Shown here piece by piece: positions 11,973 to 25,283 of a stretch of 64,000 nt of DNA. The stretch comes from Desulfobacterales bacterium (GTDB lineage: Bacteria; Desulfobacterota; Desulfobacteria; Desulfobacterales; UBA11574): NCBI GenBank assembly GCA_022340885.1, contig JAJDND010000107.1, positions 9,722-73,721 of the forward strand, read 5' to 3'. Each line of letters opens with the position of its first letter. The stretch's first letter is position 1. The position numbers were made by a program, and so were the translations under genes. Under the pieces are notes generated by a model that had not been told where the DNA came from, ran no database searches, and worked only from the letters and a program-made list of their open reading frames with translations.

Positions 11973-12902
11973 ATGGAAGCCAGCAGAAAGAGGGAGTCGA
12001 TGAAAATCGTACCGCCGGGAAAGAAGAAATGTGTATGGATGGAGGCCGGAGTTGTTTCCTATAAACTGTGCGACAACAATTTTGACTGCTCTACCTGCGT
12101 ATACGACCATGGCATGCATGAAAGGGTTGCCCGGTATAAAGAAAAAGTTGCCATGCAACCTGTTGAAACAACGCCTGATAAATTTACCGAAACATGGGCG
12201 GACAAGATGATGCAGCTTCCGGCCAGCCGTCGTAAATGCCGCTATATGATCACCGGAGAAGTGGTTCGCAAAATATGCCCCAATGCCTATGAGTGCGGCA
12301 CATGCTCTTTTGATCAGATGATGCAGGAACGACTGCAGACAGATACGCTTCCGGTGCATGCCGTGAGCCAGGAAAGCGGGTTTGAGATGGCCGAAGATTT
12401 CTACTACCATGAAGGCCACACGTGGGCCAAACCGGAATACGGCGGACGTGTGCGGGTGGGGCTGGATGATTTTGCGCAAAAACTGATCGGCCGACTCGCG
12501 AGGATTGAACTGCCGAATATCGGACAGGAAATAATACAGGGTAAGGTGGGCTTTCAAGTCAGACGCAATGGCGAAATCGCCAAAGTGCTTTCTCCCATAG
12601 ACGGTATCGTGACCAAGGTGAATGACGCGCTTCGGGATCAACCTGATCTGGCCAATGAATCTCCCTATGAAAAGGGGTGGCTGTTCACCATCGAGCCGAC
12701 AAAACTGCGCAAAAATTTAAAAGAACTCTTCTATGGACAAGAAGCTCATAATTTTATCAGCGAGGAAAAAGAAAAGCTCTTTGCCATGGCCAACCAGGAT
12801 CTGCGCGTGGCTGCAGACGGCGGTGGTTCGGTCGAAGATATTTCCCAAGAACTCGAAGGCGAAAAATGGGCCAAGTTTGTCAAAAACTTTCTTAAAACCT
12901 GA
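11973..12902 (+). CDS. GcvH-fold (glycine-cleavage H-like) protein with two N-terminal 4-Cys modules
   Basis: A strong RBS (AAAGGAGGA) precedes the start. The C-terminal half (YYHEGHTWAKPEYGGRVRVGLDDFAQKLIG...SPIDGIVTKVN...PYEKGWLF) follows the GcvH pattern. Residues 18-52 and 87-121 are two copies of C-x2-M-x2-G-x-V-x2-K-[LI]-C-x-N-x-[FY]-[DE]-C-x-T-C-x-[YF]-D. Confidence 0.75.
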   Translation: MEASRKRESMKIVPPGKKKCVWMEAGVVSYKLCDNNFDCSTCVYDHGMHERVARYKEKVAMQPVETTPDKFTETWADKMMQLPASRRKCRYMITGEVVRKICPNAYECGTCSFDQMMQERLQTDTLPVHAVSQESGFEMAEDFYYHEGHTWAKPEYGGRVRVGLDDFAQKLIGRLARIELPNIGQEIIQGKVGFQVRRNGEIAKVLSPIDGIVTKVNDALRDQPDLANESPYEKGWLFTIEPTKLRKNLKELFYGQEAHNFISEEKEKLFAMANQDLRVAADGGGSVEDISQELEGEKWAKFVKNFLKT

Positions 12903-12930
12903 TTGTCATTTTAAAGACGGGCGATAAAAA

Positions 12931-12971
12931 ATACCCCCCTGCCGGGTTGAACGGCAGGGGGGTATTTTTTT
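12931..12971 (+). terminator. Rho-independent terminator
   Basis: ATACCCCCCTGCCG-ggttgaa-CGGCAGGGGGGTAT forms a 14-bp GC-rich stem and is followed by TTTTTTT. It lies 29 nt after the GcvH-like stop. Confidence 0.9.
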
Positions 12972-13127
12972 GGATAACATGCTGGATTTTAAGCACCGGG
13001 TTGATCGTAGTTCCTTATTAGTTGAAGTTAAAACAATCCGAAAATTTTTGGCTATTCCGCATCCCGGCGCGGCAAAATTCCGTGCCCGCTGTTGAATGAT
13101 TTTTTATGTATAAATCAATAATTTTGG

Positions 13128-13157
13128 TTGACAAAATCGTCCTTCAAAGGGTAAAAA
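13128..13157 (+). promoter_or_regulatory. Weak sigma-70-like promoter candidate for the hdr operon (TTGACA-N18-TAAAAA)
   Basis: TTGACA at 13128-13133 and TAAAAA at 13152-13157, about 95 nt upstream of the ATG at 13253. The -10 element is poor. Confidence 0.25.
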
Positions 13158-23444: not shown

Positions 23445-23540
23445 TCGCCTATCATCCGTTGTTGCTGATTTGAGAACAAGGTGCTTGACGATTGATCAAA
23501 GAAAAAGACAGTTGGCGACAGATGACTGTTAGGAGGGAAA

Positions 23541-24215
23541 ATGATAGTTGCCAAAAGGAAACCCTTTGAAGAAATAAAAGAAATGATCAAGGACTATAAA
23601 AAAGTCCTGAACGTGGGCTGCGGTACATGTGTGGCGGTCTGCCTTGCCGGCGGCGAAAAAGAGGTCGCCGTATTGAATGCCGAAATCGACATGGCCAGGA
23701 AATTGGACAACAACCCCATCGAACTCGGCGCCCAGACCGTCGAAAGACAGTGCGACCATGAATATCTCGAGGAGCTGGATGATGTGATCGGCGACTACGA
23801 TGCCGTCATCTCTATGGCCTGCGGTGTCGGCATCCAGTTTCTGGCGGAGCGGTTCCCGGACAAGCCGGTTTATCCGGGTGTGGATACATGCGGCATGTCC
23901 GCCAATCAGGCCGTGGGTTGGTATGAAGAGCGGTGCCGATCCTGCGGAAAGTGCGTGCTCGGGATGACTGCGGCCATCTGTCCGGTGACCATGTGCGCCA
24001 AAGGGCTTTACAACGGTCCCTGCGGCGGCACCAACAAAGGAAGCTGTGAGATCGACACGGAACAGCCCTGCGCATGGTTCAGGATCTATGAACGCCTGGA
24101 GCGTCAGGGACGCCTTAATAATATTTTAATATACACTCCCCCGGTGGAATGGAATGACCAGATTCCGAGAACATTGATTCAACCCGGTTATAAAAAACCG
24201 GAGAAGGCTGGCTGA
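23541..24215 (+). CDS. metV: MetV-type zinc/iron-sulfur subunit of methylenetetrahydrofolate reductase (MTHFR C-terminal-domain family)
   Basis: A 224-aa Cys-rich protein (GCGTCVAVC, MACGVG, CRSCGKCVLG..ICPVTMCAKGLYNGPCGG..GSCE...CAW) lying immediately upstream of metF. Confidence 0.8.
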   Translation: MIVAKRKPFEEIKEMIKDYKKVLNVGCGTCVAVCLAGGEKEVAVLNAEIDMARKLDNNPIELGAQTVERQCDHEYLEELDDVIGDYDAVISMACGVGIQFLAERFPDKPVYPGVDTCGMSANQAVGWYEERCRSCGKCVLGMTAAICPVTMCAKGLYNGPCGGTNKGSCEIDTEQPCAWFRIYERLERQGRLNNILIYTPPVEWNDQIPRTLIQPGYKKPEKAG

Positions 24216-24356
24216 TGGTTGAAAAGTGAAGTGGGTGAACGGGTAAGTGGCACTGCGTTGCAAAGAGATTCGGAATAAACCGGGCCCATGGGGTTTAACG
24301 GATAACCTATCAACGAATAAACGAATCATAAGGGATCAGAACAAAAGGAAAACCAA

Positions 24357-25283
24357 ATGAAATCAGGAAGCAATTTGGAAAAAGTCTTAAAAGCGGGTCA
24401 TTTTGCATTTACAGGGGAACTGGGGCCGCCCAGGGGCTGTGATGTCGAAGAAGTCAAAGAAAAGGCGCAACATCTGAAGGGGAATGTGGATTCGGTGAAT
24501 ATCACCGACAATCAGACCGCCATGGTACGGATGTCCAGTTGGGCCGCGAGCCTTATCCTGCTTCAGGAAGGTCTGGAACCCAATTTCCAGATGGTATGCC
24601 GGGACCGCAACCGGTTGGCCATGCAGGCCGATATTTTGGGCGCCTATGCCCATGGCATACGGAATATGCTGTGCCTTTCCGGCGATCATCAGAAATTCGG
24701 AGATCATCCCATGGCCAAAGGGGTATTCGATATCGACTCCATCCAGTTGATCAGCATGGTTAAAAACATGCGCGACAACGGGACATTTTTAAGCGGCGCC
24801 GAGTTGCATGGAATTCCTAAAATGTTTATCGGTGCGGCATCCAATCCGTTTGCCGATCCCTTCGAATGGCGGGTGCACCGTCTGGCAAAGAAGGTGGAAG
24901 CCGGGTGCGATTTTATCCAGACCCAGTGTATTTATAACATGGAAAAGTTTCGGGAATTTATCAAGCAGGCCAATGATATGGGGCTTACCGAAAAAACGTA
25001 TATTCTGGCCGGTGTGACGCCCATGAAAAGTGTGGGTATGGCCAAGTATATGAAAAACAAGGTCCCCGGAATGGATGTGCCCGATGAAATCATCAAACGA
25101 CTCCAGGGTGCGGAAAAAGGAAAGGTGGCCGACGAAGGCATCAAATTCGCCTGCGAACAGATCGAAGAGTTCAAGGAGATGAAAGGGGTTCACGGGGTCC
25201 ACATGATGGCCATTGAGTGGGAACACAAGGTCCCCGAGATCGCCGAAAGGGCCAAGGTGCTTCCCCGGCCGGTTGTGGACTAG
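24357..25283 (+). CDS. metF: 5,10-methylenetetrahydrofolate reductase
   Basis: A 308-aa protein with ELGPPRG, NITDNQTAMVRMS, LCLSGD and FIQTQCIYN, typical of MetF TIM-barrel proteins of the acetogen/sulfate-reducer type. Confidence 0.9.
   Translation: MKSGSNLEKVLKAGHFAFTGELGPPRGCDVEEVKEKAQHLKGNVDSVNITDNQTAMVRMSSWAASLILLQEGLEPNFQMVCRDRNRLAMQADILGAYAHGIRNMLCLSGDHQKFGDHPMAKGVFDIDSIQLISMVKNMRDNGTFLSGAELHGIPKMFIGAASNPFADPFEWRVHRLAKKVEAGCDFIQTQCIYNMEKFREFIKQANDMGLTEKTYILAGVTPMKSVGMAKYMKNKVPGMDVPDEIIKRLQGAEKGKVADEGIKFACEQIEEFKEMKGVHGVHMMAIEWEHKVPEIAERAKVLPRPVVD

Follow-up and report, generated by a model that had tools for sequence, protein, structure and literature searches.

A selenocysteine-rich gene cluster of a Desulfobacterales bacterium probably encodes a variant of the Hdr-type methylene-tetrahydrofolate reductase

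The interconversion of methylene- and methyl-tetrahydrofolate (CH2-THF and CH3-THF) is the Wood-Ljungdahl pathway's thermodynamic problem step: in the oxidative direction its potential of -200 mV is too positive for the reduction of NAD+, and in the reductive direction it is a possible energy-conserving step. For the heterodisulfide reductase-type (Hdr-type) methylene-THF reductase (MTHFR), the physiological electron partners have been a standing question since 2014. The stretch of Desulfobacterales DNA analyzed here (the window, 64,000 nucleotides of contig JAJDND010000107.1) carries genes for HdrA-type, MvhD, HdrCB and MetVF proteins at positions 13253-25283, and raises the question of whether they form such an enzyme and what their domains reveal about its partners. 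The row hdrL1-mvhD1-hdrA2-mvhD2-hdrCB-metV-metF is most likely one operon, as judged from its sequence, and we consider it highly probable that its product belongs, at the family level, to the Hdr-type ("type IV") MTHFRs of the Wood-Ljungdahl pathway, as a selenium-dependent variant. The explanation as a whole, comprising operon, enzyme type and electron wiring, seems to us on balance probable. The cluster is an uncharacterized variant of the enzyme of Moorella and Sporomusa and not a new kind of system; its value lies in anatomical hints to the redox partner, namely an NAD(P)H module in the low-potential arm of one HdrA, a second HdrA with a free ferredoxin domain, and a selenocysteine (Sec) in the HdrCB of all close orthologues. 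The variant and its relatives are near-universal in the Desulfobacterales, which are major marine carbon mineralizers.

The open reading frames (ORFs) called with translation table 11 between 11973 and 25283 form a plus-strand string with odd gaps, and the fragments join once TGA is read as selenocysteine. The five in-frame TGA codons, at 13430, 18024, 18840, 21731 and 22854, fall in hdrL1 (13253-17683), mvhD1 (17826-18575), hdrA2 (18663-21686), mvhD2 (21686-22108) and the HdrD-like fusion gene hdrCB (22125-23444), and their readthrough gives proteins of 1476, 249, 1007, 140 and 439 amino acids (aa), respectively; metV (23541-24215, 224 aa) and metF (24357-25283, 308 aa) contain no Sec. A tRNA-Sec gene is present in the genome, and 15-20 nt downstream of all five TGAs lies a GC-rich hairpin with G-rich loop residues that resembles a selenocysteine insertion sequence (SECIS). 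When codon columns were compared over the fetched relatives and the paralogues, the aligned Sec columns held only TGA or cysteine codons, with the exception of two serines in the MvhD2 column. TGA and TGC/TGT occur 68 and 6 times, respectively, at U60 of HdrL1, 32 and 45 times at U67 of MvhD1, 68 and 7 times at U60 of HdrA2, 45 and 33 times at U16 of MvhD2, and 100 and 0 times at U244 of HdrCB. Sampled more widely across the order, HdrCB relatives all have one TGA where their identity exceeds about 70%, and some at 67-69% identity have none. Because of the tRNA-Sec gene, the SECIS-like hairpins and the alternation of TGA with cysteine codons at the same columns, we read the five apparent ORF breaks as selenocysteine codons. 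The possibility that the broken ORFs are pseudogenes was rejected, since each of the breaks coincides with a TGA codon in a Cys/Sec column and has a hairpin after it. The hairpin CUGGUCGAGGUCGGCCGGCA after the TGA is identical in hdrL1 (13396-13467) and hdrA2 (18806-18877), whereas the two proteins are only about 63% identical over the N-terminal stretch that bears it; a SECIS constraint acting on the coding sequence would fit this pattern.

Gene assignments draw on Pfam, NCBIfam and PDB matches, and Pfam confirmed every gene named for this region in a preliminary description of the window, each at its place and on the plus strand. MetV, the Cys-rich small subunit of a MetVF-type MTHFR, matches PF12225 (DUF5981; 1.5e-32), and MetF, the MTHFR-family catalytic subunit, PF02219 (4.2e-41); both MvhD proteins match FlpD/MvhD (PF02662; 1.9e-50 and 8e-49), HdrL1 contains Fer4_20 and Pyr_redox_2, and HdrCB contains Fer4 and CCG. 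The short or overlapping junctions noted earlier are also borne out: the intergenic gaps within 13253-25283 are, in order, 142, 87, -1, 16, 96 and 141 nt, and TAATG at 21684-21688 is a real overlap of the mvhD2 start with the hdrA2 stop. A terminator scan predicted no convincing plus-strand terminator between the genes, the mvhD1/hdrA2 junction included. Upstream of hdrL1 there is a terminator together with a promoter-like site, which we only tentatively read as a putative sigma-70-type promoter of the operon (TTGACA-18-TAAAAA, plus strand, 13129-13158); its TTGACA -35 box, about 120 nt 5' of hdrL1, is kept within the genus.

The arrangement of these genes is not due to chance. In stretches of about 19 kb surrounding MetV orthologues from 20 relatives, we found the order (hdrL or hdrA)-mvhD1-hdrA2-mvhD2-hdrCB-metV-metF at all seven same-genus loci, as far as the contigs reach, in two further genera of the family, of which one lacks hdrCB, and in six other Desulfobacterales families. 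It is this recurrence over genus, other genera and other families that excludes chance, and the comparison across the order that the preliminary description called for thus reveals a deeply conserved synteny. One genus has a single HdrL-MvhD ahead of MetVF. Among 39 HdrCB loci with long flanks, MetVF is found at 26 (25 of which also have HdrA-type genes) and the NfnB module at nine; the Sec-HdrCB family is present in 95 of the 121 sampled genomes of the order.

Modules of the GltD/NfnB kind accommodate NAD(P)H, FAD and two [4Fe-4S] clusters. HdrL1 is laid out as a thioredoxin reductase-like (TrxR-like) unit 1, an HdrA N-terminal domain, a TrxR-like unit 2 and a C-terminal ferredoxin domain, a plan that equals that of HdrA2 plus an NfnB/GltD block. 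The approximately 470 extra residues of this GltD/NfnB-like NAD(P)H-FAD-2x[4Fe-4S] module match NfnB, GltD and StnC-type modules (E = 1e-86 to 1e-129; in the PDB, 5jca_L at 4.6e-88 and 4ylf_B at 1.4e-86), and Pfam places Fer4_20 at residues 156-232 and Pyr_redox_2 at residues 248-546. The insertion had been described as following residue 115; its actual start is at about residue 153-157 and its end at about 620-634, so that it lies between the two [4Fe-4S] motifs (C109-x2-C-x2-C-x3-C and residues 621-640) of the inserted ferredoxin domain, which it splits. No gene for an NfnA (FAD/[2Fe-2S]) partner was found by Pfam in the cluster. We rejected an NfnAB transhydrogenase, as the NfnB-like module is fused inside an HdrA and no NfnA-like gene accompanies it.

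HdrA2 reads as a fused, domain-permuted HdrA "dimer". In the alignment with methanogen HdrA, its residues 10-370 correspond to HdrA 155-512 (TrxR-like unit with an intact inserted ferredoxin domain), residues 443-616 to HdrA 4-177 (N-terminal domain and start of the second TrxR unit), and residues 856-1003 to HdrA 509-654 (C-terminal ferredoxin domain). The inserted ferredoxin domain keeps both CxxCxxCxxxC motifs. A search for homologues of HdrA2 returned generic names only ("heterodisulfide reductase subunit A-like polyferredoxin"). Sec60 of HdrL1 (TGA 13430-13432) is located in TrxR-like unit 1, and Sec60 of HdrA2 (TGA 18840-18842) aligns with the second cysteine of the HdrA DCxMC motif. Both proteins have, in unit 1, a DCxM(U) pair that corresponds to HdrA Cys197 and a CCMYAVK motif whose lysine corresponds to Lys409, residues of the type that marks a bifurcating flavin (PMC9430772). 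Unit 2 is without the DCxxC pair in both proteins, and the bifurcation lysine in this unit is a leucine in HdrL1 but kept in HdrA2.

The two MvhD proteins are 42% identical and carry Sec at different cysteines, U67 (TGA 18024-18026) in MvhD1 and U16 (TGA 21731-21733) in MvhD2. Residues 1-130 of MvhD1 are an MvhD domain (50% identity to 5odc_D; TM-score 0.81 of the core against MvhD of 5ODC), followed by a conserved, helical C-terminal extension of 120 aa. In an AlphaFold model (pLDDT 83) the extension is composed of helices only and has no PDB match; a winged helix-turn-helix is not confirmed. In HdrCB the HdrC and HdrB parts are both present, yet fused, and just one of the two CCG domains retains its cysteines: an HdrC-type 2x[4Fe-4S] domain (residues 30-91) precedes a degenerate first CCG-type (HdrB-like) half, which has lost its cysteines except for C211 and U244 (TGA 22854-22856), and an intact second CCG domain (residues 297-388, DPC...CCGGGGG...PCHNCH). 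A PDB sequence search found no match at E <= 0.001 for the HdrB part, and a comparison of folds was therefore needed. The best fold match of the model (pLDDT 71, pTM 0.79) is mycobacterial EtfD, an ETF:menaquinone oxidoreductase (PDB 9OJN, E = 2.5e-8), with TM-scores of 0.61-0.64 against HdrB; the best NCBIfam models are HmcF (2.9e-48), TmcB (3.8e-46) and DsrK (5e-31), all far below their cut-offs (165 vs 750 bits and so on). MetV had no match in a PDB sequence search.

Of the four MTHFR classes, the fourth ("type IV") is the Hdr-type MetFV-HdrCBA-MvhD of Moorella and Sporomusa (Kremp et al. 2022, PMC9430772), which cites Mock et al. 2014 for the enzyme of Moorella thermoacetica; in Sporomusa ovata, pull-downs showed that MetVF, HdrA, HdrB and MvhD interact (PMC9430772). 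The cluster in the window resembles both in encoding metV and metF with HdrA, HdrB/C and MvhD. The M. thermoacetica HdrA is a 1487-aa protein with an extra ferredoxin plus TrxR-like domain interrupted by a GltD FeS/FAD/NAD(P)H domain, and the Moorella protein has NADH:benzyl-viologen activity (PMC9430772). Compared by published description, HdrL1 (1476 aa) has this design, followed by an HdrA without the inserted ferredoxin domain, and HdrA2 (1007 aa) resembles the 942-aa HdrA of Sporomusa with its two TrxR units, although in HdrA2 the inserted ferredoxin domain is complete. The preliminary description's view of a Moorella-like MetFV/Hdr/MvhD set that includes an NAD(P)H:FAD module is thus borne out by domain content and synteny. 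Its view of the NAD(P)H module as an expansion beyond Moorella does not hold, because the Moorella HdrA already carries the same GltD/NfnB insertion, and in this respect the novelty of the cluster, which is otherwise real, conserved and correctly read in outline, was overstated. The composition does depart from the six-subunit Moorella set, as had been claimed: both HdrA types occur together, there are two MvhD proteins, of which one is extended by 120 aa, HdrC and HdrB form a single polypeptide that retains only one intact CCG domain, and five subunits are selenoproteins. The host differs as well, being a sulfate-reducer-type member of the Desulfobacterales that probably runs the pathway oxidatively.

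An HdrA-GltD fusion was named HdrL in Desulfobacterium autotrophicum in 2009; it was called unique to that organism, and its dsrABC and fdh neighbours were discussed with no link to metF (PMC2702500). The two cases share a large Sec-containing HdrA-GltD fusion followed by an mvhD gene, and both organisms are members of the Desulfobacterales; in our comparison the fusion is widespread and recurs next to MetVF. HdrA or HdrABC genes beside metF have been noted in Desulfobacterales of the Seep-SRB1g group (PMC10553843). A further parallel is the Geobacter metallireducens Bam system (bioRxiv 10.64898/2026.04.10.717634). Its BamE is a fused, permuted HdrA dimer that holds two FADs, only one of them bifurcating; its BamF is an MvhD adaptor that exceeds the usual length by more than 100 aa and carries Sec near its N-terminus; and its BamD, an HdrBC fusion with a degenerate distal non-cubane cluster, delivers the high-potential electron to an electron-transferring flavoprotein (ETF). 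By published description HdrA2, MvhD1/MvhD2 and HdrCB match BamDEF feature by feature, but the cluster has neither a BamB/BamC tungsten module nor BamGHI, NAD(P)H would enter through the GltD module that is built into a second HdrA-type protein, and a BamF-like winged helix-turn-helix is not confirmed in the predicted, all-helical MvhD1 extension. No AOR-type or NuoEFG/HydABC-type genes were found in 11973-25283 or its flanks. A class II benzoyl-CoA reductase (BamB-I) was rejected, as only the DEF-like module is shared.

Methanogen HdrABC-MvhAGD (PDB 5ODC, 8RVU, 7BKB) shares the HdrA core (E = 1e-183 to 1e-186), MvhD (48-50% identical in structural alignment) and the HdrC and HdrB folds, and the Sec of HdrL1 and HdrA2 aligns with HdrA Cys197. 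In contrast to the methanogen system, there is no hydrogenase and no CoM-S-S-CoB metabolism here, the HdrA units are duplicated and permuted, and the first HdrB CCG domain has lost its cysteines. DsrK, TmcB and HmcF of sulfate reducers and EtfD likewise combine HdrC-like and HdrB-like parts in one polypeptide, whereas HdrCB is soluble, the cluster encodes no membrane partner for it, and Sec244 is found in all close orthologues. The literature that we found contains no description of a Moorella-type HdrA together with one of the Sporomusa/BamE type in a single cluster, of a second, long MvhD, of a fused HdrCB whose Sec is kept in close orthologues, or of five selenoproteins in a row.

MetF/MetV interconvert CH2-THF and CH3-THF at about -200 mV. 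In HdrA complexes electrons enter via MvhD, the high-potential arm leaves via HdrC/HdrB and the low-potential arm via the inserted ferredoxin domain. Given the deeply conserved synteny, the natural reading of the domains is the one anticipated in the preliminary description, a multi-flavin CH2-THF/CH3-THF oxidoreductase that is coupled to NAD(P)H and probably bifurcates or confurcates electrons. MetF/MetV would perform the CH3-THF/CH2-THF step (E0' about -200 mV), the GltD/NfnB-like module of HdrL1 would bind NAD(P)(H), and the MvhD proteins would act as [2Fe-2S] adaptors. The first TrxR-like unit of either HdrA-type protein could be the site of bifurcation or confurcation, because the signature lysine (probably the glutamate too) and the Cys/Sec pair are kept there. 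HdrCB would be the high-potential port, a role supported by its nearest matches, HmcF/TmcB/DsrK and EtfD. Our preferred wiring, which we put forward tentatively and at less than even odds, is that electrons from CH3-THF are bifurcated to NAD(P)+ and, via HdrCB, to a more positive acceptor. In the oxidative direction the low-potential arm would take electrons from CH3-THF to NAD(P)+ (-320 mV), an acceptor suggested by the splicing of the GltD module into the low-potential (inserted ferredoxin) arm of HdrA, and the high-potential arm would lead via the Sec-containing HdrCB to a protein thiol/disulfide (DsrC, for instance), to an ETF or to a partner linked to quinones; when running reductively, as in autotrophy, the complex would confurcate instead. 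The preferred wiring fits the quinone-linked MTHFR activity of T. phaeum and the NADH/ferredoxin bifurcation that was sought but not seen in M. thermoacetica or T. phaeum (PMC6895022), as well as the transfer from BamD to ETF. A confurcation of NADH with a high-potential donor (quinol) has been proposed for S. ovata (PMC9430772).

Several points weigh against this reading. To our knowledge, purification of an Hdr-type MTHFR has so far never yielded a complex whose physiological reaction is defined. The free, intact inserted ferredoxin domain of HdrA2 fits a ferredoxin partner equally well. HdrCB is not tied to MetVF everywhere, since its orthologues stand alone in some genomes: 11 of the 39 HdrCB loci have no MetVF, HdrA-type or NfnB neighbour, an 81%-identical Sec-HdrCB of Desulfospira joergensenii DSM 10085 (L101:10001-11317) lies alone between an hrpA-type helicase gene and parA/parB with no redox gene close by, and lone copies likewise occur at Desulfobacula, Desulfotignum, Desulfosudis and Desulfamplus loci. 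HdrL-MvhD pairs without MetVF exist elsewhere in the same genome, where, with seven MTHFR-family genes present, any of three full MetVF-Hdr clusters may serve the main pathway. Finally, dithiols (dihydrolipoate, glutathione) gave no stimulation of the S. ovata enzyme (PMC9430772).

The alternative that survives best, though we think it unlikely, reverses the original Moorella hypothesis: CH3-THF (-200 mV) and reduced ferredoxin (about -450 mV) would be confurcated onto two NAD(P)+, or, during autotrophy, NAD(P)H bifurcated to CH2-THF and ferredoxin, and HdrCB would be no more than a wire of Fe-S clusters leading from the HdrA flavin to MetV/MetF. The intact inserted ferredoxin domain of HdrA2, the counterpart of the ferredoxin-reducing exit in methanogen HdrA, speaks for a ferredoxin partner, and so does the mean potential of CH3-THF and ferredoxin, which is close to that of NAD(P)H (-200 and -320 mV in PMC9430772 and PMC6895022). 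Carbon monoxide dehydrogenase (CODH) would supply reduced ferredoxin in acetyl-CoA oxidation, and an acetyl-CoA synthase (ACS) gene is present. Against it, NADH/ferredoxin bifurcation was sought but not seen in M. thermoacetica or T. phaeum (PMC6895022); moreover, the NAD(P)H module of HdrL1 lies in the low-potential arm and not on the MvhD entry route, and if HdrCB were a mere wire, it would be difficult to account for a Sec found in all its close orthologues (100 of 100 TGA).

Rather doubtful, in our estimate, is the notion of two enzymes side by side that are co-transcribed or simply neighbours and do not assemble into one complex, HdrL1-MvhD1 being an independent NAD(P)H:acceptor oxidoreductase and HdrA2-MvhD2-HdrCB-MetVF a Sporomusa-type MTHFR. 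HdrL-MvhD and HdrA-MvhD pairs do occur without MetVF, at many loci of this genome and beside dsrABC in D. autotrophicum (PMC2702500); the first gene lacks the NfnB module in three families (f4, f9, f11); and in Desulfosarcina variabilis and others the cluster has a Moorella-like order, metV-metF-hdrA(split)-mvhD-hdrCB, and that of D. variabilis comprises these components only. In three same-genus genomes (loci L038, L039 and L042 of G001, G006 and G002), hdrL1 is about 71% identical and the six downstream genes 88-96%, which suggests that hdrL1 is exchangeable on its own; the first gene looks as if it had been replaced by recombination, and the GcvH-like gene found upstream in the window is missing there. 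Yet the hdrL/hdrA-mvhD1 pair stands upstream of hdrA2 in the same order in at least eight families, and no terminator is predicted between mvhD1 and hdrA2. In addition, an NfnB-bearing HdrL is the sole HdrA-type gene of independently arranged MetVF clusters on contig C207 of the same genome, at locus L051 and at the type B loci, so that the NAD(P)H module recurs with MetVF itself.

An elaboration of the preferred bifurcating reading, similarly doubtful, would line up two bifurcation modules of the HdrA type one after the other, as class II benzoyl-CoA reductase does, with a protein thiol/disulfide or ETF as the second partner at the HdrCB Sec site. Candidate thiol/disulfide partners may be DsrC or the neighbouring Cys-rich, lipoyl-less GcvH-like protein. 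If this were true, sulfate reducers would split the oxidation of CH3-THF directly between NAD(P)+ and the sulfite-reduction or quinone chain.

It is very improbable that MetVF merely makes CH3-THF for methionine synthesis next to unrelated Hdr genes: a short MetE-like methionine synthase gene (25558-26631) with a SAM-I riboswitch (S-adenosylmethionine-binding; RF00162, 59 bits, 26830-26925, minus strand) ahead of it is convergent to metF, an adjacency kept within the genus, but the gene lies on the minus strand under its own riboswitch, is absent beside the cluster outside the genus where the Hdr-MetVF order persists, and a selenoprotein machine of 3,500 residues would be out of proportion for a biosynthetic trickle.

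The host genome is a metagenome-assembled genome of 228 contigs and 3.55 Mb (89% complete), most likely of a Desulfobacterales bacterium of or near Ca. Desulfatibia, as judged from HdrCB-anchored loci in named records; HdrCB is 90% identical to that of "Candidatus Desulfatibia vada", among the closest assemblies. Acetyl-CoA synthase (contig C88) and formyl-THF synthetase (contig C10) genes indicate that the genome has the Wood-Ljungdahl pathway. A linkage of the cluster to CODH/ACS was rejected, both of these genes being on other contigs. The genome has about twenty HdrA-type loci, most with Sec. Besides the cluster described here, full MetVF-Hdr clusters are found at C207:4184-13832 (L139; metF'-hdrL-mvhD-metV-metF-hdrCB) and C228:4205-11719 (L138; hdrCB-metF'-hdrA2-like-mvhD-metV-metF). 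The latter has Cys instead of Sec in HdrA and MvhD and keeps Sec in HdrCB. Both have an extra divergent MetF-like gene (33-36% identical to MetF) directly 5' of the HdrA-type gene, adjoin PAS histidine kinases or sigma-54 regulators, and may be selenium- or condition-specific isoenzymes; the presence of three differently built paralogous clusters in one genome suggests partner- or condition-specific isoenzymes. Contig C83 (L140:1-7192) has a fourth MetV-MetF pair followed by three genes with glutamate-synthase domains, and contig C103 (L141:9250-10863) a 537-aa MetF-MetV fusion beside a LigB-like gene and ammonium transporters. No methyltransferase or demethylation context was found for the MetF paralogues among their neighbours on C207, C228, C83 and C103.

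The GcvH-like gene (11973-12902, plus strand, 309 aa, PF01597 GCV_H) upstream of hdrL1 had been counted as part of a supercluster. It is indeed adjacent, but an intrinsic terminator at 12926-12971 (plus strand; A-run, GC-rich stem and U-run; -37.8 kcal/mol, z = -6) separates it from the operon, and in five relatives a GC-rich hairpin followed by a T-run occupies the same site with different stem sequences. A sigma-54 promoter, TGGCACAGACCTTGC (TGGCAC-N5-TTGC, plus strand, 11893-11907), the sole perfect match in the window, lies 65 nt 5' of the start and is predicted to drive the GcvH-like gene only. Because of this promoter, the strong terminator and the conservation of the latter, we reject the gene as a member of the operon and read it as a separate monocistronic, sigma-54-driven and terminated unit; it is found upstream of the cluster only within the family. 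Two palindromes TGCCGAA-N3-TTCGGC (11675-11691 and 11775-11791, plus strand, 100 bp apart), about 100 and 200 nt 5' of the sigma-54 promoter, belong to this unit and not to the operon, and are likely enhancer sites for the sigma-54 activator encoded upstream, a sigma-54-dependent response regulator at 9726-11078 that is preceded by a PAS/GAF histidine kinase at 7605-9671. An M54 peptidase gene is also found in this upstream neighbourhood.

The GcvH-like protein has the GcvH fold at residues 144-264 and two repeated N-terminal C-x12-C-x5-C-x2-C modules. Its assignment as a glycine cleavage H or lipoate-binding protein was rejected: aligned to 1ONL, it has glycine at the position of the lipoyl-lysine (VRRNG vs VESVK), and it scores below the cut-offs of the NCBIfam GcvH models. 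At least nine GcvH-like paralogues are present in the genome (including contigs C73, C109, C126, C163 and C165), three of them less than 3 kb from HdrA/MvhD genes on the same strand; along C73 a GcvH-like gene is followed by one for a long MvhD and then by tandem HdrA, with no strong terminator between them. Since such paralogues adjoin HdrA/MvhD genes on C73 and C165, a looser functional link between GcvH-like and Hdr proteins may exist. At the other end of the operon, the intergenic region between metF and the MetE-like gene (25284-25557) contains no classical U-run terminator 3' of metF; it is rich in GTTCAG/CTGAAC words and has a folding energy of -82.7 kcal/mol (z = -6.2 against shuffled sequences).

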